Below are positions 6,318 to 26,958 of a DNA stretch of 36,741 nucleotides, in pieces (position 1 is the stretch's first letter; each line of letters starts with the position of its first letter). Both the position numbers and the translations under genes were made by a program. Source of the DNA: a virus (taxonomy: Duplodnaviria; Caudoviricetes); IMG/VR virus record IMGVR_UViG_3300014775_000538, positions 1-36,741 of that record. One strand, given 5' to 3'. The notes under the pieces were generated by a model. The model saw only the letters and a program-made list of their open reading frames with translations, was not told the DNA's origin and did not search any database.

Positions 6318-7655
6318 GAAACGTTGAATACGGCTGACCATATCTTGGTCTGCTTCTGAAGGCACGGGGAAACGTAACTCGGTACGACCAGCAAAAGGAC
6401 TTTTACCTTCTGCTATTCGTTCCATTGCGTGTCTTCGTGCTTTCATAACTACAGATTCTGACGGAGGCAACTGACGAGAAGATCTCATAACGGTGTCATT
6501 TATCTCTTCTCTCGTTAGCGTTGGGACAATCGAAGGATAGTCTCCGATATCACTGTCGTATAAAGAGTATTCGGTTACCGCCTGACCACTAGGTGAAGTT
6601 AGCTCACCAAAGTATCCTTTACCTTTTAATGAGTCGCTTATAACGTTTCTAGTATCTCCACTGTATCGAATTCCGTAAGGGTTTAATTCGGCTACATTAT
6701 CTTTTGTCACCTCGCCACCTTTTTCCATCATTGCGGCTATTGGTGGAATAGAAGATCCAAGCCCTCCCATAGTTGAAGACTGATTGAATCCGCCCATAGT
6801 TGGAGACTGATTGAATCCGCCCATATACTGTGGTTGCCCAAAAGTTTCCTTCTCTAAAGTATCAACCTGCTGTAAAAAGTCCCCTACTTTTTGAGCTGTT
6901 TCTTGAGAAGCTTGTCTCTGCAAGTCTCTTTGTGCTTGAGCCCCATAGGTGTTCATTAAATAATTACCATATTGCCTTAGCCCAGAAGGATTTCCCCCAC
7001 GGGGCATAACTCTACGATCACTAGGACCTTGGGATAAACCGTTGAAAGGTAAGCTACCTATTCCACCCATCATAGGGCTACCCATCATAGGGCTACCCAT
7101 CATAGGAGTACCGATTCCACCACCCACACCCATTACGTCACTCTGTGTTGTTGAACTATACGGAGAGGGGGGAGTGGTTGGCGAAAGGCTGCTCAGACGT
7201 GAAAATAACGAATTTCCAAAGGGGGAATTAGGCACAAAACCTCCTGATGCAAAGCTAAGAGAGCCAACCCCGTATTGTTGAGAGAACCCCGCAGGATTCT
7301 GAATAATGTTTACAGCATTTTGCCTAGCCACTTGTAATTGTTGAGCCCTGTTTTGAGCCGCAGTGTTAAACGCATCCAGTTCCTCTTGGGTAAACCCTGG
7401 ATCAGCTGGTTGTGTCGGAGCCGTTTGTGTAAATGCGCTTGTTCTAGGACCCGCATTGTAGGCTTCTATAGCTTTATTGTAAGCATCAACTTCTGCTTTA
7501 TACTTTTCTACAGCAGCGTCATAAGCTTCTGACCGAGTTTTATAGTCCTCAGCTTTAGCTCGATCTTCTGAAGTCAACGTGGTAGGTACAAGAACCTGAT
7601 TCGGGTTATATAACCCGCTTGCGCCTGAACCAAAACTAAAACGTGGGATAGCCAT
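6297..7655 (-). CDS. Putative internal virion protein; modular and low-complexity
   Basis: Last gene of the late operon (TAATG coupling). Three segments are separated by FASGGFV and MEKGGEV motifs. Confidence 0.65.
   Translation of the reverse strand: MAIPRFSFGSGASGLYNPNQVLVPTTLTSEDRAKAEDYKTRSEAYDAAVEKYKAEVDAYNKAIEAYNAGPRTSAFTQTAPTQPADPGFTQEELDAFNTAAQNRAQQLQVARQNAVNIIQNPAGFSQQYGVGSLSFASGGFVPNSPFGNSLFSRLSSLSPTTPPSPYSSTTQSDVMGVGGGIGTPMMGSPMMGSPMMGGIGSLPFNGLSQGPSDRRVMPRGGNPSGLRQYGNYLMNTYGAQAQRDLQRQASQETAQKVGDFLQQVDTLEKETFGQPQYMGGFNQSPTMGGFNQSSTMGGLGSSIPPIAAMMEKGGEVTKDNVAELNPYGIRYSGDTRNVISDSLKGKGYFGELTSPSGQAVTEYSLYDSDIGDYPSIVPTLTREEINDTVMRSSRQLPPSESVVMKARRHAMERIAEGKSPFAGRTELRFPVPSEADQDMVSRIQRFLEKNRP
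6766..6825. repeat. 27-bp in-frame tandem repeat (2.2 copies) encoding MGGFNQSxT
   Basis: cccatagttg(a/g)agactgattgaatccg twice, followed by cccata. Confidence 0.9.
7066..7106. repeat. 15-bp in-frame tandem repeat (2.7 copies) encoding PMMGS
   Basis: cccatcatagggcta twice, followed by cccatcatagg. Confidence 0.9.
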
Positions 7656-10600
7656 TAGCCTAACAAACTTTCTATACCTTGAGACCTAATCAAAGAAGAG
7701 GTTACATCCTCTGGGAACATCGCTGCAAATCTAGACCGGTCCGCGGGCCGTGCTTGTTGTGCCGGTGGTGTTGAAACCACGGGCGCTTGCGCGACTACAA
7801 TTGGACTCGGTCTAGGTGCAGCGGCACTCCGCGTGGGAAGGGCGGGTGTTCTTTCAGTTAAGGGGCTGGATACACCGGGCACGTCTTGCTCTAGCTCCAC
7901 TTCTTCTACTTCATCCTCTCGTATCACTTGAGGGACCGCTCGACGTGGTGCTTGTTCTACGTTTCCTACAAAACCCAGCCCTCTCAACATGCGTCTTAAC
8001 GCTCCGGTTAGCCTAAACTTTTGTTTGTCTGTTCTAGGTTTAGACATTAACAGGGCTAATAGATCTGGATTTTCCATTAATTCCGACATTACATCCATCT
8101 TCATGCTTTCTGGGATTCTTCCAAACAGGTTTTGTAAAGCCTGAGAACCGGCGCTTCTGGCGATCAAAGACTGTGGATCTCCGGTCATCTTTGCGACAAA
8201 ACCTCCTAAAGCCGAACCGGTAACTCTTTGATAAAACAAAGCTAAAGGACTAGCTGTTTCTATAATATCTTTTAAAGTCCCTTGTGAGTCCATGATCTCA
8301 AGTCGAACCATCTCCGTCAAATATTGCTTCAACTTATCCACTTGTTTTTGTTCAATGGCACCTTTACTTAACATCCAATCTACGACACTGATGTCGGAAT
8401 TAGCATTAGGTATTTTGCTAAATAGGCTATCGTACATAGCTCTAGGGCTAAAAGTACGGCTAGTTGCACCTCCCTTTGTCATCGCCCACTCTAAGATAGC
8501 GTGTTTTAAGCCAGACGCTGCATTTTGTTGTAACTCTTTCGGAGCTTTTTCAACTACTCTCCACAAATTATTTAAAGATTTGAGCGGAGCTTTTTGCCCA
8601 GAGCTAAGTGCTCTTGCAACAACAAACGTTGGGCTTTCTGTGTTGTTTGGCAATAAATCTCTAAAGGTTATCTCGCCTTTTAACTTGTCTAGCTCGGCTT
8701 TATTTTGAGCTTGTCTTCCTTGCAAAACAACAGTCGCTCGTTCCGCATTTTTTAAATCGGCCCGTAATGCAGGGAAAGTGTCCAATAACTCTTTATTAGA
8801 ATTTACCCATCTCTGTAAAGACTTTAAGTTAATCTCCCCCGTGTTAGGGTCAAATGCAGCAGCCCTAGCGTTTCGGATAATCATCTCTTGAGTGCCACGA
8901 ATGGTAGTAGCTAAATCCTGTGCTCCTTCAAAACCATTATCAATAGCAAACTGACCTATGTCATTTATTTGTTTAACCCTTAAATACGTTGGGTCTGAAC
9001 CACCGCTCTGTAACCTTTGTGCAAGAAGTTCTGGGGATAAACGATTTGCACCGGTTTTACTCTTGTCAAAAATGCGACCCGCAAAAGCTCTGGTAAAAAC
9101 GTCATTTAAAGAACGAGAGTATGCCCGAGCTATGTCGTAAGCTGCGTTTTCACCGGTTGGAATGCTGTTGTTTAAATCGTCTAATAGACCGTTAGCAAAA
9201 TTAGAAGCCACCCTAGCAGCATTAAAATCCTGAGAAGCACTAAGCTGCCTAGATAAACCTAAAGCCAGCGTTCTCATTTCTTTTATTTCATTTACCGTTA
9301 AGGGGGTAATTTCTTCTTCTACGGCTTCCGCGGCTTCCTCTCCGATTTCTTCTGCGGCTTCTTCTAAGCCAAGTTCTTTTTTCTTTCGCTCAACAAAAGC
9401 CGTTAGTCGTCCTAATTTAGACTTTATTTCATCCGCGGCTTCTTTAGTAACCGGAATAGACTCATCCCAAGCACTGATAAAGTTAGGAACATCTAATTCA
9501 TTACCATCAACATCAAAAAACTCGTCAATAGTTAAATCATCAACGGCTGCCCACAACCTATTTTCTACGTTTCTAGCTTGAGAGAGTTGAGATGAGGCAA
9601 CCTCAAAAAGTTTTTGAGACAACTCCATATTACTTTCAGGGTCCGCACCTCTTACCCGTTCTGACGCTTTTACAACATTGTCCGCTGCCCTAGCTAATTT
9701 ATCGTTTAAACTAGCTGAAAAAACATCTTCTTCCAATTGAGCGGCAATTTGTAAAGCATTGCGGTCCCCAGTAGCTACCAACGCCGCAATTGTATTTCGC
9801 AAAGCGTTATTAGCCTGAACATTTTTAGCTATTCTTTCTTTACCTAAGCCGGGGCTCGTTTGAGTTAAAGACGCTTCTATAGCTAACAATCCAGGGCTGT
9901 TAGCTTTCATCCCTGCGGTCAACGTAATTGGCTTGCCTGTGTCGGGGTCTATCAAGGCATCTTGAAATTCTTTAGAAGACAAACGCTCAATTACTGCGGC
10001 AACATCTTCACCTTCCGATTCTAATATATCTACTATGCGAAACGCGGCCTGTTGTTGGCGACGGTTTCTAATTTGAAATTCTCCGCGTGTAAGTTTTCCG
10101 AATTGTTCTTTTAAATATTTCACTGCTGGTACTATAGAAGCGAGCCGATCCGCTAAAATTCCACCAGCTATTCCACCGGGTATCTCCAAAGCTAATCGGG
10201 TGCTTGCATCGCCAGGGTCTACAGTTTCCGCTAAATACGTTCCGGCGGCAGCTCCGGTACCTGCTACTGTTTCAACAAAAGCAGTACGCGGTTTTTCCTT
10301 ACGGGCCGCTGTACCCGTCTTGCTTAACAAACGTTCAACTCCGGCAATTAATCGAGTGCTTAAAGGACCCTTAACTCCTTCGGCCAAATTATCTAAAAGT
10401 TGGGCTGCTCCAAAACTTACGTTTTTAGAAATCATGAAAGGCATTGGAAGCCAACCTGCCGCTCCAGCGGCAGTCTTACCAGCTTCATAAGCTGCTCTCG
10501 ATCCCGGTGTGATTGGCTTTTCGGGGCCCATGATAAGATCGACGCCTTCTTTACCTACGTTGTAAAGACCTAAAGCTCCTGCAATTGTAGTCACGGTTGG

Positions 10601-11047
10601 TATAGCAACCTTTGCCACAACCGACCAAGGTGTTACGGGAGGTATAGGAGCTTGAAGAGCCATTCCAGTTTTAGCTCCGTAATAAGCACCGCCCATACTA
10701 GTTAGTTGAGGTCCAATTTCACGGGCAAACCCTCCAGCAAAAGTGCCTTCCTTAATTGGATCTCCTTGCTCGTCTACGGCAAATAAAGAAATAATCTGAG
10801 AATCAGTCAACCGACGGTCTGTTGGGGACATCGATTGGAAAGAAGGTAAGGTGTCAAATAACTTAGCGGTACCGTCTTTTAACCCTTCATAAGTAATCAA
10901 TTCGGGGTAGTCAACAGAAACTTCGTTAGTAAGCTGTCTTGCTAAAACCGGTTCCGCCCCTCCAGACTCGCTGGAAAACAAACGAGTTATTTGGTCCATT
11001 TGATCTTTACCGATCACTACTGGATCTATCTTAATTTGATTTTCCAT
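7655..11047 (-). CDS. Large putative internal virion/DNA ejection protein (1130 aa)
   Basis: Large Ala-rich helical ORF after the tail genes in a podovirus-like order, with Gly/Ala hydrophobic N-terminal segments. No catalytic motif recognised. Confidence 0.65.
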   Translation of the reverse strand: MENQIKIDPVVIGKDQMDQITRLFSSESGGAEPVLARQLTNEVSVDYPELITYEGLKDGTAKLFDTLPSFQSMSPTDRRLTDSQIISLFAVDEQGDPIKEGTFAGGFAREIGPQLTSMGGAYYGAKTGMALQAPIPPVTPWSVVAKVAIPTVTTIAGALGLYNVGKEGVDLIMGPEKPITPGSRAAYEAGKTAAGAAGWLPMPFMISKNVSFGAAQLLDNLAEGVKGPLSTRLIAGVERLLSKTGTAARKEKPRTAFVETVAGTGAAAGTYLAETVDPGDASTRLALEIPGGIAGGILADRLASIVPAVKYLKEQFGKLTRGEFQIRNRRQQQAAFRIVDILESEGEDVAAVIERLSSKEFQDALIDPDTGKPITLTAGMKANSPGLLAIEASLTQTSPGLGKERIAKNVQANNALRNTIAALVATGDRNALQIAAQLEEDVFSASLNDKLARAADNVVKASERVRGADPESNMELSQKLFEVASSQLSQARNVENRLWAAVDDLTIDEFFDVDGNELDVPNFISAWDESIPVTKEAADEIKSKLGRLTAFVERKKKELGLEEAAEEIGEEAAEAVEEEITPLTVNEIKEMRTLALGLSRQLSASQDFNAARVASNFANGLLDDLNNSIPTGENAAYDIARAYSRSLNDVFTRAFAGRIFDKSKTGANRLSPELLAQRLQSGGSDPTYLRVKQINDIGQFAIDNGFEGAQDLATTIRGTQEMIIRNARAAAFDPNTGEINLKSLQRWVNSNKELLDTFPALRADLKNAERATVVLQGRQAQNKAELDKLKGEITFRDLLPNNTESPTFVVARALSSGQKAPLKSLNNLWRVVEKAPKELQQNAASGLKHAILEWAMTKGGATSRTFSPRAMYDSLFSKIPNANSDISVVDWMLSKGAIEQKQVDKLKQYLTEMVRLEIMDSQGTLKDIIETASPLALFYQRVTGSALGGFVAKMTGDPQSLIARSAGSQALQNLFGRIPESMKMDVMSELMENPDLLALLMSKPRTDKQKFRLTGALRRMLRGLGFVGNVEQAPRRAVPQVIREDEVEEVELEQDVPGVSSPLTERTPALPTRSAAAPRPSPIVVAQAPVVSTPPAQQARPADRSRFAAMFPEDVTSSLIRSQGIESLLG

Positions 11048-11049
11048 TA

Positions 11050-13779
11050 CTAATCTTCCCGCTTAGAACGATTTCCTAAGTTAAGCATTTTCCTCAAGGC
11101 GTCTACTTTTTCATCACTTGCAGACATCTGTTTGTAAGCATTATCAAAAACTTTATATCCCGCCTTTAGTTGACTTAAATCAGTTAAATATCCTTGAGCT
11201 TCGCTTACTTGCGCAGCGGTTAAAGGGGAATTAGGATCCTCTAATTTAGTTCGAAGGGCTTCCTCTGCTTCATCAATCATACCTAAGACTCGTGTAACCT
11301 TAGCTCCGGCTGCTTCTGGTCCCATAAACAAATTCTTAGGGGAAGGAACTAAATCTTTTAACATTTGCAACTGCATTACACTATCGCGTAATTCAGCGGA
11401 ACGCTGAAATACTTGAACGAACTTGGTATTAAGAGCCTCAGAACCCGCAATGGCTTCCTTTTCTGCTTTAAAGGGCGCTCCGAAAAAGAAGACTTCCGCC
11501 ACGGTATTAGCGAAATTTTTAAGAAATCCTTCCGTACCAAAAGCGCTTTGTGGGTCCTCAATCCCTTTCATTATTTGGCTAACCACTACTTCCTTCTGAT
11601 CCTCTTTGGTACCAGCATCCGTGGTAGAGGTATCGGAAGGGGACCCTCCGTCTAACTTGATGTTCGGGATAGAAAGTTGGTTATCCTGACGTATCCTTAT
11701 AGCAGTTTGAAGTTCGTTAGACAAAGGATTACCCGGCACAATAACGAAAGCTTTCTTTTCTTCACTCCACACAGATTTCGGAGCATTGTAGTAAGCAATA
11801 GCTTGATTGAGCTCTAAGGTCTCTTCTGGACCCAAGGTTCCCATAGCATACGCAGTAATTCTTTCAGGATCAGACACCAACGTTGTAATCCTAGCGTCTG
11901 TACTTGTTCCTAAGCGCGTGAGTCTTGCCGCAACCCTTTCGATATCTAACTTGTCCGTCTTGTATTGTTTTTCAAACGCATTCATTTCGGACTGCATACG
12001 ATTAACTTCGGCTTGAAGCTCAAGTTTTCTTTCGCCTTGAGCTTGATCAACCTCTGCTCGTTTTGTATCGAGCTCTAAGCGACGGTTAGATATTTCTCTG
12101 TCTAAGTCAGCCAGCTTTTCTTTTAGAGCATTATTCGTATTATTAAGCTCTATAGCCTGCTCATGAGCTTTGTCCATTTTAGCCAAGTCATACTCGTTAG
12201 CTACGTTCATTTCATTAAGCTTAATGTTTGCTCTAATCTTAATGTTTTCTTTTTCTAGTTTATCCGCAAGAACAAGATTATCTTTTTGACCACTCTGACG
12301 TAACAGTTCTATGTCTTTAGCGTTATCGTTTTGCATCTGTTGTAACGCTTGACGATTAACTTGACGATAGTCTTCTAAAGTAATAGCTCCGCTCTGCTTT
12401 AACTCTTCCAGAGTCATATTTTGAGCGCCCTCTATCCCTTTAAGCTCAATACGACCCCTTTGTTTTAATCCCTCTAAAACACTCTGTACATTTGTATCAA
12501 GAACAGCTTGGCGCTCCATCTTAGCTAAGTCTTGCGCACCTTTTATTTCTTGAATTTTTAACTCTTGAGCAGCTTTAGCTTTTGCCGTCAAGTCAGCCTC
12601 GGCTGCTTGTAACGCACCAAATTTAGCTTGTCTCATTATTGCATCTTGTTGAGCTTTACGTTGAGCGGCTCCAGCCGTTATACCACTAATGTTTTGTAGT
12701 ACGCCTTGTCCTGCCAGCGCTAATTTTTCAGCCGTGCTCATACGACGATCTGCGGGGGATGCTAACTGTAATCCACCCTGAGCTAAAGCAAAAAGCATTT
12801 GAGCTTGATCTAATTCTTTTTGTCTCTGTATCTCAGCCGGGTCTATACCAGCAATTTGCTCGTATAAGGGTAATCGTGATTGATAACTGGCGGTGAGTGG
12901 ATCTCCACCCGCTTGCATTCCAACCACACCGCCATATTTAAAATTTACAGGAGCTGGGCCCTCCTCAGCGCCCATGTCAACCGTAGACATAATGCCTTGT
13001 GCCATGTCTCCTGAGACCGGTTGTCCCATCTGCTCTTGTGCTAGTCCGCCAATCCCTTGATCAACCTGTGCCATCATCATGACCGGCTGAACCAAAGTCA
13101 AGACAGACTCTGGTGTTTGTTGTGCATCTTCTGGTCCGACGATATCGGCTAATTCCATCCGACGCTCTTCAACACTGGCTTCGTCTCCGCGCATCGCGTT
13201 CATTACTTCTTCAGCACTTTCGGCGTCATCTAGCGACGTCATGCTTTGTTGAGCCTGCATCAACATTTGCTCCATGATCGCTGGATCTATTCCCCCCGCT
13301 TGTGCCATCGGGGGCATCGCCGAATCTTGTGGGGCAGGCATCCCAACCATTGGATTGACCGGAGCCATGCCGCCTTCTTGCATGTAGTTTACCTGACCGC
13401 CGTAGGCAAAGTCCTGTATGCTACCACCGTCTGTATCACCCGGAGAAAATTCAGGCCGCCCTTTAATGTAATCCATAAACTGTTGTATGTAGCTTCGATC
13501 CATCTCTTCTTGCTCTCTTCGAGCTCGGTCTAGGCCCTCTTGCATACGACGTTCAGCTTCTTGCTGCCGATACATTTCTTCCAGAATCCGACGCTCTTCC
13601 TCGGTACGAGGTGTAGAAGCAAACTCTGGATCTCCAGGAGCAACCCCACCTTCCTGCATCGGTATCACCCCACGACCCATCAAAATATCTTTCTGCGTCA
13701 CTTGCCCATCACCGCTAAGATCAGGAAAAGCTGCGCCACCCTTGGCAAACATCTGCCGTGCCATTAATTCTCTATTCAT
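11050..13779 (-). CDS. Putative internal virion/ejection protein (909 aa) with long coiled coil and GG-motif-rich N-terminus
   Basis: Q/E/K-rich central coiled coil, six xxxGG motifs in the first ~295 aa, and an EF-hand/dockerin-like DLSGDGQVTQKD. Confidence 0.65.
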   Translation of the reverse strand: MNRELMARQMFAKGGAAFPDLSGDGQVTQKDILMGRGVIPMQEGGVAPGDPEFASTPRTEEERRILEEMYRQQEAERRMQEGLDRARREQEEMDRSYIQQFMDYIKGRPEFSPGDTDGGSIQDFAYGGQVNYMQEGGMAPVNPMVGMPAPQDSAMPPMAQAGGIDPAIMEQMLMQAQQSMTSLDDAESAEEVMNAMRGDEASVEERRMELADIVGPEDAQQTPESVLTLVQPVMMMAQVDQGIGGLAQEQMGQPVSGDMAQGIMSTVDMGAEEGPAPVNFKYGGVVGMQAGGDPLTASYQSRLPLYEQIAGIDPAEIQRQKELDQAQMLFALAQGGLQLASPADRRMSTAEKLALAGQGVLQNISGITAGAAQRKAQQDAIMRQAKFGALQAAEADLTAKAKAAQELKIQEIKGAQDLAKMERQAVLDTNVQSVLEGLKQRGRIELKGIEGAQNMTLEELKQSGAITLEDYRQVNRQALQQMQNDNAKDIELLRQSGQKDNLVLADKLEKENIKIRANIKLNEMNVANEYDLAKMDKAHEQAIELNNTNNALKEKLADLDREISNRRLELDTKRAEVDQAQGERKLELQAEVNRMQSEMNAFEKQYKTDKLDIERVAARLTRLGTSTDARITTLVSDPERITAYAMGTLGPEETLELNQAIAYYNAPKSVWSEEKKAFVIVPGNPLSNELQTAIRIRQDNQLSIPNIKLDGGSPSDTSTTDAGTKEDQKEVVVSQIMKGIEDPQSAFGTEGFLKNFANTVAEVFFFGAPFKAEKEAIAGSEALNTKFVQVFQRSAELRDSVMQLQMLKDLVPSPKNLFMGPEAAGAKVTRVLGMIDEAEEALRTKLEDPNSPLTAAQVSEAQGYLTDLSQLKAGYKVFDNAYKQMSASDEKVDALRKMLNLGNRSKRED

Positions 13780-15284
13780 TAAAATAACCCCGCTTTACTT
13801 GCTCCGGCTGCTGCCGAAAGACCTGCGATACCCAATCCGAGAATCTTCTCTCCCGTGGAAACTGATGGTGTAGTTGTTCCTGTCAAAGACATCTGACTAG
13901 AAGGAGCACCCTTGTAAATGTCAGACAAGAAACCAAGACGCTGATATGGCTCGTAAGCTTGCTGAAGCGCTGTCTGACGCTGTGCCTCAAGCTCTGCCTG
14001 TTGCTGTTGTTGCATCTTCTGACCAATATCAAACAAGAATCCAGCCTCCTGTTGACCCAACGCCTGTTGCTGCTGACCAAGAGAAGCCTGTCTCAAGCCT
14101 AGCGTACCCAACGCCTCACCTTGTTGTAGCCCAAGCTGACCGTATTGTGTACCGAGTCCGCCAATACCTTCGGCCAATTGACCACCTAACTGTTGACCAC
14201 TAAGACCTAACTTACCGGCCTCAAGCGCCCCAGTAACACCTAATTGAGCCTGTCCTTGTCCTAATTGACCAGCTTGACCAGACATCTGACCAGCCAATTG
14301 AGCTGCCGACATGCCCGTCTGAGCGGATAATTGCTCAAGGTTAAGACCCGTCTGTGCCAAAGCCTGTGCATTAGCCGCTTGTAACTGAGCAGTATTCAAC
14401 CCAAGTTGACCTCCAAGTTGAGCCGCCTGCTGACCTCTAGCCTGTTGCGCTTCAAACGCCTGCTGTGCCCGTTGTGCCGCACTCTCAAATCCAGCTGCTC
14501 TCATCTGAGCCGCGGTCCGTGCTTGCTGTTCCAAAACGTTACGTCCAAGCTCCTGTTCTGCTACCGCCTGACGAGACCCGCCAAACGCACCACTGGCCGC
14601 GGCCTGCGCTCCAAGCGCTTGCTGTCGAATGTCACCTTGACGTGCAATGTCAGCTAAAGCCTGTTGTACGGCCAGGTCTTCAAAAGGACTTTGGTACGTA
14701 GAAATCTGGGATGGATCAAACTGTCCTGTGGTACCAGATAAGCCTTGAAGGGCTTGTTGATAAGCACCAATCCCGGTCTGAGTTGCTTGACCAAATTGCG
14801 GCATAGCCTGTGCGCCAATACCTTGAGCGCCTAATCTCGCTTGCTGTGCCACTTGTTGGCCGGTGTCCGCAGCCTGACCTAATCCGGAAATCGCACCTGC
14901 TGTGTAACCTTGACCTAAGCCCAAAGCACTTTGCACACCTTGTTGTCCAGCCATCACTTGAGGCTGTATACCGGCCTGAGCACCTCTTAACCCCGCCAAG
15001 GATTCTTGCTGAAAGGGACTGGCACCGGCCATGACACCGCCTAATGCAGTTTGAGCATCACCTAATGTATAACCAGCTTCGGTTAGGTACGGCTGGAAAC
15101 CACCAATACCTTGTTCGGCAGCGCCAAAAGCCGCAAGCTGTAACGGAGAAAGACCCGCTATTTGTTGCGCTGGAAGACTTACGGGTTTATCAGCTAATTG
15201 TTTTGCGGATTCTAAAAGCCCTAGTTTTATAGCCTCTATTTCAGGCGCTTCACGGACTATTTGTGTGGTGGTTTCAGTAGCCAT
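13779..15284 (-). CDS. Gln/Gly/Ala-rich putative DNA ejection (pilot) protein
   Basis: GAFGGSRQAV motif, QQA/GQL repeats and a hydrophobic Gly-rich C-terminus, as in podoviral DNA-transfer proteins. Confidence 0.65.
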   Translation of the reverse strand: MATETTTQIVREAPEIEAIKLGLLESAKQLADKPVSLPAQQIAGLSPLQLAAFGAAEQGIGGFQPYLTEAGYTLGDAQTALGGVMAGASPFQQESLAGLRGAQAGIQPQVMAGQQGVQSALGLGQGYTAGAISGLGQAADTGQQVAQQARLGAQGIGAQAMPQFGQATQTGIGAYQQALQGLSGTTGQFDPSQISTYQSPFEDLAVQQALADIARQGDIRQQALGAQAAASGAFGGSRQAVAEQELGRNVLEQQARTAAQMRAAGFESAAQRAQQAFEAQQARGQQAAQLGGQLGLNTAQLQAANAQALAQTGLNLEQLSAQTGMSAAQLAGQMSGQAGQLGQGQAQLGVTGALEAGKLGLSGQQLGGQLAEGIGGLGTQYGQLGLQQGEALGTLGLRQASLGQQQQALGQQEAGFLFDIGQKMQQQQQAELEAQRQTALQQAYEPYQRLGFLSDIYKGAPSSQMSLTGTTTPSVSTGEKILGLGIAGLSAAAGASKAGLF

Positions 15285-17143
15285 TATGCCATCCGTCCTT
15301 TACGCTCTAGGTTAGCCATGACATCGTACATTCGATTTATTCCTCGCCTTAAATCTCCACCTCCTGCACCTTTTACTGCGTCGGTGGTCATGACAAACTC
15401 ACCGGGCATTAACATCGCTCGAACGCTATCTTTCCCAGGTACGCCCTCATCTGGCATGATTCCGCCATTTCGACGAGGGAATATTTCTCCACCTTTTGCC
15501 GCAGTTTGAACAGGTGGACGGTAGAAAGGACTTGAGGAACTAGGAGTGCTTTGCTGTAACCCGTAAGAGGGTAGTTCAAATGGATTGTAGTAAGCGGTTT
15601 GTGTTGGAGCTTGATACAAAGGTGCGTTATATGACGAATAATACGGTGTCTGCGGCTGGAAGTACGTTGACTCGGCTGTGCCTATGTCTACCATAAAGTC
15701 CTGAGGATTAGCCGCAAACAAATCCGCACCGGTAATAACATTACCCGCTGCATCTCTGTCTAAAATACCTGGATCTTCCTCTGGAGGGGTTTCAAATCCT
15801 CCAGTTCCGTACAAATAAGCACCTCCCGCAAGAGCATACGGAGCTACTTTTTGAAGAAAAGTTTTTTGTGTTTCGTCAGAAAAAACCTTTGCTAACTGTA
15901 TTTTATCTGTAGTTGGTAAATTCCCATATTCTTTTATGAAAGCTGGGTCTTTTAAGACATCGGATACGCTTTTTTCTGGGGCACCAAAAATAGTTTCTTT
16001 AGCACTTTGTAAGAAAGATTTGTCTGCGCTACGAACACTTTGATCCATAGCTCCTGCACCCGGAGCACCACCTCCCGGAACGTTAGCCTGAGCGGGTTGA
16101 ATGTAATTTGCATCGGAAAAAGTCGCACCAGACGTATCAAGGGGTGGCTGTCTACCAACTAATCTACCTTCCGCGGCACCTGCCTCGGCTAAAGATTTTG
16201 GACCAGATGCCGTGGTTGTACCCAAATCTGAGGCCATTTGCTCTGAGGCAGTTATGGGTTGCGTTTGATATGCAGTGGAGGCATCCCCGCTTCTAATCGA
16301 TTCGCCAAAAACAGACGTGTCTTGAGCTGGGGTGGTAGCGGGTGGAACAAACTGCTGACCAAAGTTAAAGCCTTGACCGCTAAGACCACTCTTAATCTGA
16401 CCGCCAACTTGAGCAAAGCGAGCACCTGGATTAGACAAAGCACCGGTAAAGTTTTCTCCAAAAGTACCTGGACCGGTAAACCCGGTAAATGCCGCGCTTG
16501 TAAGACCAGAAAGAGCCGCAGATTTAAGGGCATCTTTAATATCGCCACCTTGCAATAAGGTACCAATACCAGAACCTAGAGCTGCGCCATAAGCACCCAA
16601 TGCTGGAAAAGCCAACGACAAGGCAATAGGCAATACAATCGGAGCAACCTTTTTAAGAACCTTAACCGCTTGACTAGCTACTTTCTTTACGCCTTTAGCT
16701 ACGCTAGAAACTGTTCTCGTAATAGGTCTAGTAACTCTCCTAACAAAACTACGAAAGCCATATTCCGCTAAACCCGTTTCAGGGTTAATCGAAGCTGCCC
16801 CCGAACCAACCACGTATTGCTCTGGATCTTCAATCCCTTGAGCAACTAAGGCTCTAAAGACAACTTCTTTAATTTCAGGGTTCTCGTCTAAAATATTTTT
16901 AGGAATAACAAGCTCACCCGTTTGGGCGTGGACAATAACGTCGTCCCCAAATCGGCCCAAAGCTGCCATTTGGGAGGCTACGTCAGTAAACTGACTGATC
17001 CCTTCGCCTCCGTATGCCTCATCAACAAGTTGTTGATCTTCTTCCCGCTCTAACGCCGCGATGTCCTCATCGGACATCATAAAACTAGCTACGCCCCCAT
17101 CAGGGACTTGAATCTCTTCGTATTCTGCGGTCATCTCAGCCAT
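15284..17143 (-). CDS. Putative ejection/DNA-transfer protein
   Basis: GRFGDDVIVH...GELVIP domain, INPETGLAEY motif, basic amphipathic plus hydrophobic segment, and C-terminal DSVRAMLMPGEFVMT domain. Confidence 0.65.
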   Translation of the reverse strand: MAEMTAEYEEIQVPDGGVASFMMSDEDIAALEREEDQQLVDEAYGGEGISQFTDVASQMAALGRFGDDVIVHAQTGELVIPKNILDENPEIKEVVFRALVAQGIEDPEQYVVGSGAASINPETGLAEYGFRSFVRRVTRPITRTVSSVAKGVKKVASQAVKVLKKVAPIVLPIALSLAFPALGAYGAALGSGIGTLLQGGDIKDALKSAALSGLTSAAFTGFTGPGTFGENFTGALSNPGARFAQVGGQIKSGLSGQGFNFGQQFVPPATTPAQDTSVFGESIRSGDASTAYQTQPITASEQMASDLGTTTASGPKSLAEAGAAEGRLVGRQPPLDTSGATFSDANYIQPAQANVPGGGAPGAGAMDQSVRSADKSFLQSAKETIFGAPEKSVSDVLKDPAFIKEYGNLPTTDKIQLAKVFSDETQKTFLQKVAPYALAGGAYLYGTGGFETPPEEDPGILDRDAAGNVITGADLFAANPQDFMVDIGTAESTYFQPQTPYYSSYNAPLYQAPTQTAYYNPFELPSYGLQQSTPSSSSPFYRPPVQTAAKGGEIFPRRNGGIMPDEGVPGKDSVRAMLMPGEFVMTTDAVKGAGGGDLRRGINRMYDVMANLERKGRMA

Positions 17144-19780: not shown

Positions 19781-19801
19781 AGCGCTTATAAATAAATTAA
19801 G

Positions 19802-19966
19802 TTACCAAGGAACGCCTGATTGTTGTGTAGGTGCTTTTTGTGCTTGAACATCGTTGTAAACCTTTTCTTGAAGTTCTGTCACTCTATCTACACCTAAAGC
19901 ATCTTTAACACCACCATCCGCAGTGTTACGTTCTAGGTTAGCGATAGTCCATGTAAATGTTGCCAT
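19802..19966 (-). pseudogene. Internally deleted tail-fibre accessory protein (54 aa, not in ORF track)
   Basis: SD AAGGA. Translation MATFTWTIANLERNTADGGV-KDALGVDRVTELQEKVYNDVQAQKAPTQQSGVPW keeps both termini of a ~100-aa phage family I recall, but lacks its middle. Confidence 0.6.
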
Positions 19967-19977
19967 TTTTATATTCC

Positions 19978-20433: not shown

Positions 20434-20442
20434 AATCTCTCC

Positions 20443-21003: not shown

Positions 21004-21319
21004 CGTTATTCACCAGTTTGATGATATTTTCAGGTGTGCCGTTCTGAATCTCCATAGATGCTAGTAATAACTTCTGTGATTCCTGAGCACCTTTAACCAT
21101 CTCATTACGGAATGATTCAACAGCCGCGCCCGTTTGACGAGATTGTGCCGCATTCTCAACCAATAGCATAGGTGTCCACGCAATGGCACAAGCGTAGTCA
21201 TCGACCTCTTTTCCAGTGTTAGGGTCAGCACCCCGCATGTGAACGAACCATGCACAGTCTAATTGCTTGCACGGCTCAAAGTTATTTAACGGGCAATTGC
21301 TTTTAACTTCTAGCTTCAT
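20996..21319 (-). CDS. Cys-rich conserved protein downstream of the tail fibre
   Basis: CPL...C...CAWF...GxDPNTG...CAIAW...GAAVESFRNE pattern. Confidence 0.7.
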   Translation of the reverse strand: MKLEVKSNCPLNNFEPCKQLDCAWFVHMRGADPNTGKEVDDYACAIAWTPMLLVENAAQSRQTGAAVESFRNEMVKGAQESQKLLLASMEIQNGTPENIIKLVNNDE

Positions 21320-21321
21320 AA

Positions 21322-22935
21322 TCAGTCTTTAGTTGCGATGATTAGGTCAACGTACTGCACGTTAATAGCTGCTGTAGCGGATGATAGCGAACCTGCTAAG
21401 TTACCTGCTGATGGAGCACCGTTAAGCGTACCAGATAGGTTGTGGCTGTGATTGTGAGCACCGTTGTTGCCTGTGCTGGATGTGCTCATTGTGGTAACAG
21501 AGCCACCAGTCCATTGTGCTGATGCATAATTCCCGTTAGGTGTGTTCACAGGCTTCATTCCGTATTGCAAATGACTATGTGACGGAATCGTATTCACACT
21601 AAGCGTAGTATTGGCAATGTTACCAGACACGCTAACCGCCAAGTTACCCACATCAGGGTCACCGTTAATGCCAACAGTACCACTTACCGTAGGAGTACCG
21701 AACGCAGTAGAGAACGCTGTAGTACCGCCTGAGCTTGCTGTACCAGATACCACACGCAGAGCCTTATCGTTGTGCGTAGTCTGCTTAGTCCAGCCAGTAG
21801 GTGCAGATGTCTGTTGAAACAGCATTGCAGTGCCTGAAGGAAACGGATCAACACCAGTTAATCCAGAACCATCACCACTAAACGAAGTAGCTGTAACTGT
21901 GCCTGTTACGTCAAGTGCTGTAGCAGGACTACTCGTCCCAATACCAACTCTGTTATTTGTAGAGTCAACCGCAAGTGTGTTGGTGTCTACTGTTAAGCCG
22001 TCAGAAACTACAGTACCCGTTACGTCAACGCCTGTTGCGGTTGTGGCGAGTTTAGCGGAATTGCCATAATAAGCTGTTACAGCACCGGTTGATTGAACCG
22101 CCGTTAAATAGCGTGTAGTAGCATCAGCCCCTCTTAAGGTTAAATCTTCTCCTTGAATAAATAGACTTCCTGTACCAGCCTCAGCTATAAAACTGTCAGT
22201 TCCCGAATGATAAATCTGTAGATCAGACCCAGCACCAAAAATAGCTTTTGAGTTATCCGCAAAAGTAATATCGTCTGCCGCCGAAACAGCTATATCTGTG
22301 CCACCGGTGGTGTTTCCGTTAGCTAATATCTCAGCAAGTGTATCTACGGTGCCAACCTGACTGTCTACATACGCTTTAATAGATTGTTGCGTAGCCAGCG
22401 CAGTGGCGCTGTCAGAACCCATGTTGTCTTCATCAAGTATTGAGGTAACCGATACAGAACCCAACCGAAGGCTATCAAAATAAGCGTTGTTAAAAACATT
22501 AGCTGCAACAGCACCAGTCCCGGCACCGTCGAAATAGACAACGGCAGTTGTTCCTGAAGGTATCTCATAGTCGTTCGACGCATTGTAAGTCCCTTGAAAA
22601 ACTAAAATGCTTCGGCTTCCAGAAAGATTATTCCGGATGTAAACAATCTTTTCCGCATCGTTAGGCGTCAATTGAACGTAAGCTGTAGCGCCTAAATCAG
22701 AACCGTCATTAAAAATAATCAAGCGGTTTCTACCATCAGAGGACGTTCCATCTACAATATCTACATTATTTGGAGATCCACTGGTACCCGCACTTGGCAA
22801 AGTAATAGTTACTTGACCATCTAAAGACGTATCAATTAAACTTAAGTTAGTATTAGTGGTATCTCCCCAAGTGCCAGATTGTTCTCCGGTAGCAATTAGC
22901 TCAATACCATTGTTTGTTGTATAAGAACTAGGCAT
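21322..22935 (-). CDS. Tail fibre protein
   Basis: N-terminal anchor GEQSGTWGDTTNTNL, LATQQSIKAYVD, FGAGSDLQIYH, RVGIGTSSP, collar-like FPSGTAMLFQQTSAPTGW and HxH tip motifs. Confidence 0.85.
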   Translation of the reverse strand: MPSSYTTNNGIELIATGEQSGTWGDTTNTNLSLIDTSLDGQVTITLPSAGTSGSPNNVDIVDGTSSDGRNRLIIFNDGSDLGATAYVQLTPNDAEKIVYIRNNLSGSRSILVFQGTYNASNDYEIPSGTTAVVYFDGAGTGAVAANVFNNAYFDSLRLGSVSVTSILDEDNMGSDSATALATQQSIKAYVDSQVGTVDTLAEILANGNTTGGTDIAVSAADDITFADNSKAIFGAGSDLQIYHSGTDSFIAEAGTGSLFIQGEDLTLRGADATTRYLTAVQSTGAVTAYYGNSAKLATTATGVDVTGTVVSDGLTVDTNTLAVDSTNNRVGIGTSSPATALDVTGTVTATSFSGDGSGLTGVDPFPSGTAMLFQQTSAPTGWTKQTTHNDKALRVVSGTASSGGTTAFSTAFGTPTVSGTVGINGDPDVGNLAVSVSGNIANTTLSVNTIPSHSHLQYGMKPVNTPNGNYASAQWTGGSVTTMSTSSTGNNGAHNHSHNLSGTLNGAPSAGNLAGSLSSATAAINVQYVDLIIATKD

Positions 22936-22980
22936 TTGTTATATCCTTTACGAAGATCTCTTATATTAAAATAAAAATAA

Positions 22981-23844
22981 TTATGCCGCTATAGGCAACC
23001 ATTCCGGCAATTGGCTCGGAGTTATACCGCCCCATTCTGGCGATTGGTCTGGGGTTATATTTCCCCATACTATAACATTTCCTACCGCAGAAGTGGCCTC
23101 TAATCCGATAGGATTTACCGTCGCTCCCTGAATTACAGTAACCGATCCAACAATCCCGGTAGCGTATGTTCCAGTAACATTTGAAACAGCACCGGCTGAA
23201 ACGGATACGGACCCTACAGATGTTGTAGATTCTATTCCTGTAGTCGAAACGTTAATAGGTATAACTGCGGTAAGCGTCCCAACCTCAGACTGAGCTTCCA
23301 GCCCTGTAACATTTATGTTTGTAATGCTGGTTACAGATACTGTACCAACCTCGGTGGTAGACGAAACCCCGGTAACAGAAGCGTTTATATTTACACGAGC
23401 GTCAACGGTTCCTACCGCAGATGTCGCCGCTATTCCGGTAACAGAAGCGTTTGAATCCCCATTAACGGTAACAGACCCTTCACTAGAAGTAGCTTCTAGC
23501 CCTGTTACAGAATAAGCAAAAGCAACCGAAACACTTCCTACCGAAGGTGTAGCGCTTAGTCCGGTTGCAGAGGCAATAGAATCGCCAGTAACGCTTACAT
23601 CATTTATAGCCCCGGTTGCTGACAATCCAGTAAGATTTACCGTGGCTGTTTGAGTAGCCTCTACAGTTCCTACTGACGTAGTTGCTTCTAATCCAGTTTC
23701 CGGAACGTTAACATCCGCGGATACCGTAACAGAGTTTATTCCCGAGCTTGCTCCAGATACCGCGACGTTGTTACCCCAGGTTGAATCCCCCCACGCTTGA
23801 GTAGAGGAATTCCAACCTCCAAGGCCAACAACGACCCCGGCCAT
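22981..23844 (-). CDS. Ser/Thr/Val/Gly-rich repetitive virion protein
   Basis: About 10 repeats of VTGxxATxxVGxV, with Trp-Gly motifs at both ends. Confidence 0.75.
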   Translation of the reverse strand: MAGVVVGLGGWNSSTQAWGDSTWGNNVAVSGASSGINSVTVSADVNVPETGLEATTSVGTVEATQTATVNLTGLSATGAINDVSVTGDSIASATGLSATPSVGSVSVAFAYSVTGLEATSSEGSVTVNGDSNASVTGIAATSAVGTVDARVNINASVTGVSSTTEVGTVSVTSITNINVTGLEAQSEVGTLTAVIPINVSTTGIESTTSVGSVSVSAGAVSNVTGTYATGIVGSVTVIQGATVNPIGLEATSAVGNVIVWGNITPDQSPEWGGITPSQLPEWLPIAA

Positions 23845-24290
23845 TAGGCAATCCTAATTATCGCATTACTAGAGTCAGCAGTAGGGAAAACGATAGTGAA
23901 ATCGCCAGCACTTGAAGACTTGTCCGAGCCAAAGTCCAAAACAATCACCGCAGGGTTGGTAAGTGCAATAGACGTGGTGTTAGGCGTAGTGTTATAAATT
24001 AAAGCGCCACGCGCCGTAACAGTAGCTGTTGAAAACGTAAGATCGGCAAAGTCAGTAAATGCAGTTGTGCCGCTGCTTGTAGGATCTACGTTTGTTAAAG
24101 CCCCGCCACCGGCGGTGTATCCAGTTCCACTAGCTTCATTTGTGGCGGAATAAGCAGTTGTACTAGCATCTAAAGTAGCGGACGAAGTATAAAGCGCCAA
24201 CTTGAAAGTGTCTGCGCCGTTTGCAAAGTCGTGTGCACCAAACATAAGCTCCTTTTTAAAGGACGTGCACATAGCTTGTGTAATAGCCAT
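23844..24290 (-). CDS. Putative virion structural protein
   Basis: MAITQAMCTSFKKEL...FKLALY...GYTAGG...ARGALIYN...VLDFG pattern in the structural operon. Confidence 0.7.
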   Translation of the reverse strand: MAITQAMCTSFKKELMFGAHDFANGADTFKLALYTSSATLDASTTAYSATNEASGTGYTAGGGALTNVDPTSSGTTAFTDFADLTFSTATVTARGALIYNTTPNTTSIALTNPAVIVLDFGSDKSSSAGDFTIVFPTADSSNAIIRIA

Positions 24291-24291
24291 A

Positions 24292-24594
24292 TCATAATCT
24301 CCTTATTAAATCTGCCAATTCTGGGTGTCCAGAATCAATCAAAACATTGTAAATGGTGGTTCTATCACTTTTAATCGCCTCCTTCATGTAGAAAGAAATA
24401 ACTTTTTGAAGATGACTTTTAAAAGCTCTAGCCTGATCCCGTATGACAGGATCCGCGCTGTCCGAGATAGATATAATTTTATCAGAACACCGCGATGCAA
24501 CTTCATCTGGAGTAAATCCCCTTTTATCCGTAGTTTGTACTTCTACAGTAAATTCTGGATTTACGTTCATATTTAATGCGGTTGTGGTAATCAT
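24292..24594 (-). CDS. Hypothetical protein
   Basis: Coupled ORF (ATGA overlap) in the structural operon. Confidence 0.65.
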   Translation of the reverse strand: MITTTALNMNVNPEFTVEVQTTDKRGFTPDEVASRCSDKIISISDSADPVIRDQARAFKSHLQKVISFYMKEAIKSDRTTIYNVLIDSGHPELADLIRRL

Positions 24595-25241
24595 TGTTTT
24601 GGCCTAATCACTTTTCCAGTTCGATACTCATCCGTAACTTCTTTGGCTTCCCCGAACATCTTCATACCCATAATCGCTTCAGCAAAACGCTTTTCATATA
24701 AAGAAATTAAATCCGGCTCGCCTTTCATGTAAGTATAAGCTTCTAACAGGCTTCCATAAAGCATTGCGATCTGAGCATTGTCACTTAACCAAGTTGTACC
24801 GCTATCCGACCCCGCTGTTAAACTTGCAGGACGATAAAAATAATGTAGCTCTACTGTGTAATTGCTGTCGGGAGTTGGTCCTATAATAAAGTTGCTGATA
24901 TCAAAAACAGCATAGTATCTAGGCGTTCCTGTGTCTGTCGCGTCCGGATTAAAAGACTGTATAAAATCTGCGTCTTTAAACTCTAAAAACACATGATCAT
25001 TGCTTCCGTTTACAAACGATAAAGATAATGGAGCTAAAAAATCACTAGGAGCCGCCAAATATTTGTTAGAGGATGTTAAGTTTCCGCTAACATTTTTTCT
25101 AAATAAGCTCAATTGAACGTTTTTTAGAATACGCTCTTCCGCCTGCTGTATGAAAATAGGCAAATTATTTACAAAAGATGTCTCAGTGTTTTCAGTGTAA
25201 TCCTGAATAGCTGTTTTTAATTCTGCGTATGTAAAACTCAT
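24591..25241 (-). CDS. Head-tail adaptor / tail tubular protein
   Basis: TYAELKTAIQDY, FIQQAEERI, GTPRYY, GPTPD and LYGSLLEA motifs. Start at 25241 (ATGA overlap). Confidence 0.72.
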   Translation of the reverse strand: MSFTYAELKTAIQDYTENTETSFVNNLPIFIQQAEERILKNVQLSLFRKNVSGNLTSSNKYLAAPSDFLAPLSLSFVNGSNDHVFLEFKDADFIQSFNPDATDTGTPRYYAVFDISNFIIGPTPDSNYTVELHYFYRPASLTAGSDSGTTWLSDNAQIAMLYGSLLEAYTYMKGEPDLISLYEKRFAEAIMGMKMFGEAKEVTDEYRTGKVIRPKQ

Positions 25242-25543
25242 GATGTCGTCACCGTGACTGTACCAACCTGACAAATCCCACTAGCAGGTCTTAAGTTTTC
25301 ATTTTCTACTGTTGGAACTCCAACATACACATCCATTGGTTCTATTCGATCTGGCCTAGCATTCTGTAGTGCTTGTGGGTCAACAACCTTTCTAAAAGGA
25401 CCCAACTGAGGATGTTTTGGCTCATACTCATCCGGGCCAACCAACAAGCCATTCCACTCACGGCGCATGACTTTATACGGATAACGGAATCCCGATCTAT
25501 CCGAAATAGCCCACGAATCTTTGCCTGAAGCAAACTTAGCCAT
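25238..25543 (-). CDS. Conserved hypothetical protein
   Basis: AISDRSGFRY...EWNG...EPKHPQL pattern; translationally coupled. Confidence 0.7.
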   Translation of the reverse strand: MAKFASGKDSWAISDRSGFRYPYKVMRREWNGLLVGPDEYEPKHPQLGPFRKVVDPQALQNARPDRIEPMDVYVGVPTVENENLRPASGICQVGTVTVTTS

Positions 25544-26214
25544 CAGCCTGACCTATAATAACTAAACTTAGGAACAACGTTAAAAGAAGCACGATCACGA
25601 TCTTCTTCGGCTGCCCTTTGAAATTCTTCTTCATAAACGGCCTTTAGCATCTGGGTTCTCTGCGGACTTTTCTTTAAAGAAAGATAATATGCAAGACCCG
25701 CCGCTAAACAGGGATAAAACCTAAAAGGTAAATCCAAAGTATTGGTAAAGGTATCCGCATCGTCCATTCTGGTCAATGCGTCATAATAAACAGTGTAAGA
25801 CGTAGAGCTATCTGGAACGGGCCATATCTTCAAGTTCGGTGTTAGCTGACGGTCCAAAAAGAACTGATTAGGTCTACCCGAAGTAGTCTTGGTAGGAATA
25901 GTCAAATACTCATCCCGACTCAATCTTTCCATTGAGTAATCTGTACCAGATACTCTAACGACTACTGACAAAACATCAATTACATCGGTGCTTAGGTCAT
26001 ATTCACCATCATTTGCAACAAGTGCTAAAGAACGTTGCTTAATCGTCCATTGATTAAGACCACGATTAGCCCAATCTGCCAGCATCAGATTTAAAGAACG
26101 TTTAGCCGTTTTTAGATCGTAACCGGTCCTAACCTCCAAGCCACAACGCTCAAAAGCTTCTTCGATGTAATCTGCTACATCTAATTCAAAGTCTTTACTT
26201 CCTGAAGTAGCCAT
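25543..26214 (-). CDS. Head-tail adaptor / connector-like protein
   Basis: IEEAFERCG, AKRSLNLM, WANRGLNQW, GRPNQF, IWPVPD and LAAGLAYY motifs. Confidence 0.72.
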   Translation of the reverse strand: MATSGSKDFELDVADYIEEAFERCGLEVRTGYDLKTAKRSLNLMLADWANRGLNQWTIKQRSLALVANDGEYDLSTDVIDVLSVVVRVSGTDYSMERLSRDEYLTIPTKTTSGRPNQFFLDRQLTPNLKIWPVPDSSTSYTVYYDALTRMDDADTFTNTLDLPFRFYPCLAAGLAYYLSLKKSPQRTQMLKAVYEEEFQRAAEEDRDRASFNVVPKFSYYRSG

Positions 26215-26216
26215 AT

Positions 26217-26531
26217 TTAAACAATCTTAGTAGTTCTTTTCCTATTTGGCATGATAGCACCACAACCTGAAGCTACCACACCGCCATATTTCATCTTTCT
26301 AACTTTAGCTTTTTGGGTGTTAGAAACCACCTGCTTACCTTTGGCCCCTTCCCGTTTCTTTTTCCTTGCGGTAGAAGCTCTTTCACCTTTACTTAAACTT
26401 TGCGCTTTTGCCTTTGGCAAACAACGATCTGGATTCTTTTTGTTCTTAGAAGTGCCGCAGGCTCCTGCGATGTTTCCAGAACTATCTATGCGAACCCATT
26501 CTTCATCGACCCATTCTTGTAATTTTCCCAT
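26217..26531 (-). CDS. Small basic protein with C-terminal MKYGG motif
   Basis: Lys/Arg-rich; WVDEEWV, CG...RCLP and MKYGGVVASGCGAIM. Confidence 0.7.
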   Translation of the reverse strand: MGKLQEWVDEEWVRIDSSGNIAGACGTSKNKKNPDRCLPKAKAQSLSKGERASTARKKKREGAKGKQVVSNTQKAKVRKMKYGGVVASGCGAIMPNRKRTTKIV

Positions 26532-26770
26532 TACTTACCTTTACGCTTACCGCCTTTGGCTTTTTTGGCGTAATTAGGATCTTTACAATATTTCGATGCT
26601 GCTAAATTTGCGTAAGCACTAGGATAGGTATCAAACGTTCTTTCTGCCCAAGCCTTACCTTCTGGGCAAATTTTACTACCCTTTGACTTACGAGATACCG
26701 CTCCACCCTTTCTATAATACGTTACAGCACAAGGTGAAACATTTGATCCAGTTTTTACCCTAGATCCCAT
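26531..26770 (-). CDS. Small basic protein with YRKGG motif
   Basis: KICPEGKAWA...FDTYPSAYAN...SKYCKDP; Lys-rich. Confidence 0.7.
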   Translation of the reverse strand: MGSRVKTGSNVSPCAVTYYRKGGAVSRKSKGSKICPEGKAWAERTFDTYPSAYANLAASKYCKDPNYAKKAKGGKRKGK

Positions 26771-26771
26771 T

Positions 26772-26954: not shown

Positions 26955-26958
26955 ATTA

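Follow-up and report, generated by a model that had tools for sequence, protein, structure and literature searches.

What joins a set of otherwise unrelated proteins encoded at the end of a phage's late operon? The stretch of DNA analysed here (the window), the whole 36.7-kb virus record IMGVR_UViG_3300014775_000538, covers the late genes of a short-tailed phage together with a few for replication, and several of its late proteins are punctuated by a seven-residue motif, [F/M/Y]-x-x-G-G-x-[V/A/I], which an earlier note, made from the letters alone, had put forward as a polyprotein cleavage or capsid-packaging signal. How short-tailed phages choose and unpack their internal cargo is poorly understood. 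We find that the motif is a real, conserved signal, and with little more than even confidence we read it as a conserved seam for cassette swaps on putative internal proteins and a likely maturation cut site, with the predicted cut between its first and second residues, likely recognised by a tape-measure-type module at the end of a 619-aa late protein.

The late genes run in the order portal, GroES, scaffold-like protein, capsid, two SU10-type adaptors, tail fibre and a 704-aa structural protein, after which come five large genes (619, 501, 909, 1130 and 452 aa) without a family match in PHROGs or Pfam. In capsid sequence the window is 70-72% identical to DSL-LC04, HTVC023P and HTVC027P, and the order of portal, GroES, scaffold-like protein, capsid, adaptors and ejection block is common to the window and these three phages; capsid and gene order identify the window as late-region DNA of an HTVC023P-type marine podophage, and about 3600 IMG/VR stretches match its capsid. 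SU10-type adaptors are present and no tail-tube or sheath family occurs among the 44 window genes. The DSL-LC04 record labels the genes matching the five large ones 'tail tape measure' and 'DNA transfer protein', and these labels, together with a position at the end of the late operon, suggest that all five encode ejection or other internal proteins; gene position likewise points to the presence of the motif-bearing proteins in the virion.

Enrichment and conservation of the motif

Because the strict pattern ([MFY]xxGGx[VIA]) was drawn from the window itself, its relatives serve as the independent test. Among 48 curated window genes, which contain 89 GG dipeptides, the pattern matches 13 times against 1.6 +/- 1.2 in per-protein shuffles, and 0 of 2000 shuffles reach 13. 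Among 2844 open reading frames (ORFs) from 196 IMG/VR loci of relatives, the 79 homologues of the 909-aa protein hold 235 matches (11.4 expected), the 41 of a 79-aa basic protein 35 (1.1 expected), the 46 of a 104-aa basic protein 22 (0.5 expected), the 10 of the 452-aa protein 16 (0.7 expected) and 952 unassigned ORFs 234 (37.5 expected); since these homologues share kinship, the counts show conservation and not independent origins. The same loci give no match in 71 capsid, 32 portal and 74 '216-aa' proteins or in the two adaptor families (64 and 56 proteins). The 156-aa and 148-aa families have 48 and 15 matches, at one conserved site each and in a different context. Within the 196 loci, the motif is a feature of putative ejection proteins and small basic proteins, together with accessory proteins that vary between loci.

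All 12 copies listed in the earlier note are present on the minus strand, where their positions had been given as the low ends of five-residue cores, and its remark that no copy was noticed in the capsid holds across the homologues. Two of its own tests also come out in its favour: frequency exceeds that in shuffles, and at four conserved free sites GG identity is 0.90-1.00 where that of the flanks is 0.17-0.38. Four further strict matches had been missed (YVYGGAV in the 704-aa, YTAGGGA in the 148-aa, FGQGGLI in the 156-aa and MGVGGGI in the 452-aa protein); they score below 6 bits on a matrix trained on relatives, and we treat them as chance or as parts of folded domains. FASGGFV and RRNGGIM, of the 452-aa and 619-aa proteins, also fall below 6 bits, yet 100% of 8 homologues of the one and 97% of 76 of the other keep the GG. 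A match at the terminase C-terminus (RFRQGGLI in HTVC027P) was discarded as a motif copy, its GG not being conserved.

Could the motif be no more than a flexible turn, or arise from a short recombination-promoting DNA repeat, and bind no partner? Gly-Gly pairs occur often in these low-complexity proteins, and the first Gly of the motif favours GGC (58% against 27% over all Gly). Yet the window copies use all four Gly codons and varied codons elsewhere, a variety on which we reject a Chi-like or other fixed DNA repeat as the basis, and the motif, whose consensus over 283 distinct contexts is V/P-x-x-[M/F/Y]-[A/R/K]-x-G-G-x-[V/A], keeps fixed hydrophobic residues at -3 and +3, is absent from shell proteins and is conserved against its flanks. 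We consider this explanation improbable.

The analogy drawn in the earlier note, with proteases that cut after the di-glycine, fares worse. Adenain, the ASFV polyprotein protease and the C39 peptidases cut after GG, and an invariant GG with a hydrophobic residue ahead of it is what such an enzyme might read. The register, however, is off by one: the quoted (M/L/I)xGG has its hydrophobic residue two before the first Gly and the motif has it three before, and in the 909-aa family [MLI]xGG occurs 78 times against 70 expected, compared with 235 against 11 for the motif. The mapped cut in the phage T5 tape-measure protein pb2, furthermore, lies two residues before GG. Pfam, PHROG and NCBIfam profiles, which remote members could escape, match no adenain, ASFV or C39 cysteine protease in the window and none in relative G001, which is 99% complete. 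The motif register excludes the adenain-type reading, and we give a cysteine protease of any of these three kinds scarcely any weight.

Copies at the borders of exchangeable cassettes

The five large genes, the two small basic genes and every feature located within them lie on the minus strand. The 909-aa putative ejection protein (11050..13779) has six copies within its first 294 residues: FAKGGAA (aa 11; 13729..13749; GG identity 0.91, flanks 0.38), MQEGGVA (aa 41; 13639..13659; 0.90, flanks 0.17), FAYGGQV (aa 124; 13390..13410), MQEGGMA (aa 133; 13363..13383), FKYGGVV (aa 280; 12922..12942; 0.93, flanks 0.28) and MQAGGDP (aa 288; 12898..12918; 0.64). The 92-residue stretch between the two MQEGG copies (aa 42-133; 13381..13656), which contains FAYGGQV and is closed by MQEGGMA, is an optional cassette: among six aligned proteins it is present in three, absent in two (L009, L006) and replaced by unrelated sequence in one (L004).

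The 452-aa product of the last late gene (6297..7655) is built alike, with conserved N- and C-terminal blocks around a swappable 175-aa cassette (aa 136-310; 6726..7250) that lies between FASGGFV (aa 135-141; 7233..7253; GG in 8 of 8 homologues, identity 1.00, flanks 0.29) and MEKGGEV (aa 310-316; 6708..6728; 18.3 bits). In two of five aligned proteins (L008, L009) a single copy joins the conserved ends; in the other three, two copies enclose unrelated inserts of about 110-340 residues, L120 and L006 among those whose sequence there is unrelated to that of the window. GG identity is low at two 909-aa sites and one 452-aa site because these sites belong to optional cassettes. Contigs of four public sequencing runs contain close variants and confirm variable 452-aa middles; they hold nothing that bears on cleavage. 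The cassette of the window also contains three tandem 9-aa repeats, MGGFNQSxT (6756-6830), one 27-base unit of which is missing in contigs of two runs.

Where the 1130-aa putative large ejection protein (7655..11047) ends, a different kind of junction appears; the window protein itself has no copy. In 11 of 42 full-length homologues the reading frame continues past the position of the window gene's stop directly into a motif copy (for example M-AEGGAV), which is followed by a further 173-554 residues; one extension only matched a stand-alone downstream protein. The 501-aa putative ejection protein (13779..15284) lacks the motif, with one match in 78 homologues; its apparent depletion (1 against 11) was discarded, an unrelated pattern being likewise depleted (9 against 98). 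A separate feature of the 909-aa protein is FPDLSGDGQVTQKDIL (aa 18-35; 13660-13730), a pattern found in 21 homologues of that family only and without a Pfam match, which we take to resemble an EF-hand or dockerin-type calcium loop.

Short proteins bear the motif too. The 104-aa basic protein (phrog_23735; 26217..26531) has one copy close to its C-terminus, MKYGGVV (aa 80; 26274..26294; GG in 44 of 44 homologues), and the 79-aa basic protein (phrog_27331; 26531..26770) has one before its conserved domain, YRKGGAV (aa 19; 26696..26716; GG identity 0.80). These two belong to a block of three small basic Cys-containing proteins (104, 79 and 94 aa; 26217-27243) that is conserved after the capsid genes. 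Of 39 loci that span the interval from a 91-aa gene to the first adaptor, 28 encode a protein of at most 130 aa with at least two copies, and several such multi-copy proteins of relatives are nearly pure Lys/Met-rich repeats, with a median of 9 residues and a net charge of +3 between copies; the window itself has no pure-repeat gene of that kind. Three examples with 7-10 tandem Lys/Met-rich copies (L075:3693-4061, L115:7849-8205, L381:15108-15377) are possible precursors of DNA-condensing peptides.

Many of the variable accessory genes with copies lie directly upstream of the portal gene. In 41 non-redundant accessory proteins, 9 copies fall at most 60 aa from the start, 14 at most 60 aa from the end and 28 internally. 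A Pfam scan of 30 of these proteins gave PcfJ and DUF6884 above the cut-off, with DUF6973 and DUF6782 weak. The terminase-portal hot spot (L081, L083, L093, L118, L074, L378:11693-13282, L037:10344-12821) encodes large variable motif-bearing proteins, some with PcfJ, DUF6884 or DUF6973 domains, which are candidate injected effectors.

Does this anatomy call for a cut, or would binding suffice? An uncut docking tag, binding the module, the portal or the inner capsid wall, could sort cargo into the prohead, with the multi-copy basic proteins acting as multivalent cross-linkers that condense cargo and DNA. Copies near either end of unrelated accessory proteins, a commonest tandem spacing of 9 residues (88 of 326 intervals) that suits avidity, the binding of a GG-rich domain of crAss gp45 to the portal wing, and the lack of an identified protease all speak for such a tag, which accounts for most of the distribution of the motif and for less of its anatomy. 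A tag alone leaves unexplained why each inserted cassette has its own copy, why a copy replaces a stop codon, and why tape-measure proteins have the module in, or close to, regions known to be cut, and we regard it as possible and distinctly the less probable explanation. We favour a cut before x-x-G-G because cassettes each bring a copy, a copy replaces the stop codon, some proteins are pure repeats, and the data on T5, lambda and crAss phages fit; cutting and docking may also be combined.

A host protease, periplasmic or cytoplasmic, might instead make the cut only once the proteins have been injected, and so release effectors; this would be in keeping with the searches that found no phage protease and with the effector-like domains of some accessory proteins (PcfJ in DSL-LC04, DUF6884), which recall polyvalent proteins (PMC5512222). 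The tape-measure proteins of T5 and lambda are, however, already cut in assembled tails, and the motif spans phages of very different hosts, so that we rate a purely post-injection cut as improbable.

A tape-measure-type module as candidate reader

If the motif is a cut site, what reads it? The 619-aa putative ejection protein (15284..17143) ends in a tape-measure-type module (aa 548-619; 15284..15502), a link that the earlier note had missed and our candidate for the reader. The module opens with two motif copies, AAKGGEI (aa 548; 15482..15502; GG identity 0.97) and RRNGGIM (aa 557; 15455..15475), the latter in register with the FATGG-type opening of tape-measure modules; these two are not, as had been proposed, free copies between disordered segments. 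There follow the core D-x-V-x-A-x-L-x-x-G-E-F-V, in the window DSVRAMLMPGEFVM (15389..15430) with Asp572 and Glu582, and two predicted helices. Asp and Glu are invariant, although the invariance of GEFVM and of the Glu is partly a product of how the search pattern was constructed. The last 70 residues are the best-conserved part of the 619-aa protein, and tape-measure matches are confined to these last ~70 residues and do not extend over the whole protein.

The module matches tape-measure PHROGs (PHROG 934, E 1e-7; also PHROG 5448) and 517 phage records, mostly mycobacteriophage tape-measure proteins, and it is found in 7820 protein clusters of a large protein library. Giant proteins of 3800-7900 aa (P0123, P0180, P0234, P0237) have 6-9 modules with long blocks between them, most modules being flanked by motif copies. 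In 82 of 90 diverse module copies a GG lies 14-32 residues ahead of GEFV, with Ala at +1 in 50. A 110-sequence profile of the module finds Douge gp16 (8zdo, two copies, E 1e-26) and JBD30 gp46 (8rk3, E 1e-7) in the PDB, and lambda gpH 733-790 (probability 86%, E 5e-6); searches of the PDB with a narrow profile or single sequences gave no matches. On profile evidence, the module is homologous to the tape-measure proteins of lambda, JBD30 and Douge. The papers on these entries describe only the last 32-42 residues as modelled, so the module is without a solved structure. AlphaFold2 monomer models are weak (pTM 0.53 and 0.40), with two helices and a motif part at pLDDT ~50-65, and a fold search with the pTM 0.53 model returned no PDB match (best Z 2.2), no Foldseek match and, in BFVD, uncharacterised phage proteins only.

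The N-terminus of the same protein (aa 38-125; 16769-17032) contains DDVIVHAQTGELVIP, which keeps the D...GE spacing of the module and adds a His, and a divergent core, DDVIVHAQTGELV, that aligns in register, weakly (E 0.011, above 20 of 20 shuffles) and as a lead only; this stretch is possibly a second, divergent module core.

Module and motif tend to occur together. Among 14 genomes with this capsid family, eight are motif-rich, with 4-12 hits where no more than 0.2 are expected, and have one module each, and four relatives without the module have 0, 0, 1 and 0 hits, in a scan that covered 50 kb only for four genomes and used a matrix trained on close relatives.

Pieces of proteins from three other phages bear on a cut at the motif. 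Lambda gpH yields pieces of ~78 kDa and ~14 kDa, the smaller coming from a glycine-rich C-terminal region, and a 2025 paper states that site, mechanism and catalyst are unknown (PMC12617516); the motif supplies an exact candidate site, F733|A734, and a candidate catalyst, and a cut at F733|ATGG would give a computed 79.8 + 12.5 kDa. T5 pb2 is cut after R1127 as judged by intact mass (PMC10038345, PMC11937500), and the T5 genome record reads R|AEGGMMYPG there; computed fragment masses are 9702 Da and 121,680 Da, the measured ones 9702 and 121,683, and only 5 of the 1219 bonds of pb2 lie two residues ahead of GG. In crAss001, the portal-bound piece of gp45 is resolved from A425 and bound to the portal wing, and a tail piece spans 214-245 (PMC10172136); N|AFGGW supplies A425, and S|AYGG (207) and F|AEGG (261) flank the tail piece.

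These observations suggest the following scheme. Proteins with copies would be packed in the head, and during assembly the module, one per genome, would bind its own motif copies first and then copies on other proteins, gathering cargo near the portal. The bond ahead of x-x-G-G would be cut, giving pieces that start with A/Q/K/R-x-G-G and are small enough to exit through the short tail; the multi-copy Lys-rich proteins of relatives would yield basic peptides of 9-13 residues. Either the Asp and Glu of the module catalyse the cut themselves or the module only presents the site to an enzyme of the host or to a phage enzyme that escaped recognition, and of the two we lean towards presentation. 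A bolder proposal, which we consider doubtful, casts the ~60-residue Asp/Glu module as a protease in its own right: very small, probably oligomeric, self-activating, and responsible for cutting lambda gpH and other tape-measure proteins of its kind. Marine podophages would have built a genome-wide polyprotein code on it, with a single module packaging and cutting every motif protein, swappable effector cassettes and pure-repeat precursors of protamine-like peptides included.

Several results weigh against reading the motif as a cut site served by this module. No maturation protease family was found in the window (44 genes against PHROGs, 29 against Pfam, 26 against NCBIfam), and no peptidase family in the window or in relative G001 except an M15 endolysin. 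HTVC023P and Caulobacter phage RW have the module and no motif hit at threshold, with weaker copies only, and the eight motif-rich genomes include six from a single clade, which leaves perhaps three independent cases of co-occurrence. Positions +1 and +2 of the motif vary widely. Cassette exchange could also arise from recombination between short DNA repeats, and cleavage data for the HTVC023P-type group were not found in the literature searched. The lambda masses fit roughly only. The T5 site has been disputed in one exchange of papers, older work placing it at V1148 (PMC11937520); it scores 4.9 bits on the window-family matrix, and hhalign of pb2C with the window module gives E 0.02 and 0.27 against the single T5 sequence, which is not significant, so that the T5 link rests on a short sequence match. 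Profile comparison of crAss gp45 with the window module is not significant either, and two GG sites inside gp45 425-552 fall in the modelled segment, which means that not every copy is cut there.

The search for an enzyme otherwise bears out the statement of the earlier note that no recognisable prohead protease is present, for the window and for G001: no maturation protease turned up among 35 of that relative's other 38 ORFs with 55 aa or more, the three on the opposite strand not counted. No embedded zincin was detected in window proteins, and accessory proteins gave a single sub-threshold DUF6782 hit (E 6e-4, 1 of 30). The 156-aa assembly protein was considered as a protease and dropped, with no family in Pfam, NCBIfam or Atlas. 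In the DSL-LC04 record, by its label only, one early gene is an 'ATP-dependent protease'. By its title, a 1973 paper reports that the host takes part in the cleavage of T5 tail protein, the host factor reportedly being GroE. The HTVC023P-type group encodes its own GroES (31837-32262 in the window), the gene adjoining the scaffold gene in all annotated relatives compared, motif-less ones included.

Two other observations concern neighbouring genes. Two conserved genes without an assigned function lie between scaffold and capsid (30481-30951 and 29797-30447; phrog_36003, phrog_37556) and are possible assembly factors, and G001 has sulfate-activation-like genes (L373:3636-6937; EF-Tu-like GTPase, PAPS reductase family) together with a DruA-family gene.

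Relation to known systems of tagging and cutting

Of the original proposal, a shared maturation or packaging signal, the signal itself is strengthened by conservation against the flanks, cassette exchange and stop-codon replacement, and the analogues named for it fall away. In the main text of the open papers searched, no description of the motif as a repeated signal turned up, and a marine phage proteomics paper mentions no HTVC or DSL phages. The present analysis adds the replacement of a stop codon by a copy, the basic proteins built of pure repeats and the co-occurrence with the module. If our reading is true, a seven-residue code runs across tape-measure proteins, crAss cargo and widespread marine phages, so that boundaries of cargo and effectors become readable from sequence, and the motif could serve as a tag to load proteins into phage particles.

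How does the system compare with those already described? Polyvalent proteins are variable, multi-cassette, and predicted to be packaged and then split by embedded zincin peptidases (PMC5512222), a paper whose main text uses neither 'glycine' nor 'tape measure'. A PcfJ domain in a motif-bearing DSL-LC04 protein recalls them, but in the window group the seam is a short Gly-Gly motif and no zincin accompanies it in the window proteins. Crass001 gp45 (Pfam PF25725, crAss_CARG1) is likewise internal cargo, with many x-A-x-G-G sites and a V-E-Q-G-E-V-V core; its cluster is the nearest named Atlas cluster to the module (0.83, a lead only), gp45 424-555 matches PF25725 at E 2e-66, and even with E up to 1 allowed the window module finds no Pfam family. 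The authors of the gp45 structure interpret it as one chain threaded through the portal, and do not use the stems 'cleav' and 'proteoly' (PMC10172136). In T5 pb2 the new N-terminus AEGGMM fits the motif in register and a G-T-E-V-V core follows, but there is one site in one protein. By eye the cores are alike: GTEVV in T5, QGEVV in crAss, PGEFV in the window.

Closest are the tape-measure proteins of lambda (gpH 733-790), JBD30 (gp46), Douge (gp16) and PHROG 934/5448, which share x-A-x-G-G, then D-x-I/V-x-A-x-L-x-x-G-E-F-V, and helices; the JBD30 module has been described, in the accessible part of its report, as a predicted 'hook' and not as a repeated signal. Unlike in these siphophage proteins, the module of the window ends a 619-aa protein of a short-tailed phage, and the motif at its opening also recurs by itself, many times over, on unrelated proteins.

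Such use brings to mind phage T4, in which a short capsid-targeting sequence sorts internal proteins into the head and is then cut off by gp21. The T4 tag is N-terminal only and is removed by an assemblin-type protease, whereas the window copies are N-terminal, internal, C-terminal and tandem, and no assemblin-type protease was found with them. By membership the system belongs to the tape-measure module family only; in its manner of working it is like tape-measure processing and, by analogy, like the tag-and-cut scheme of T4.

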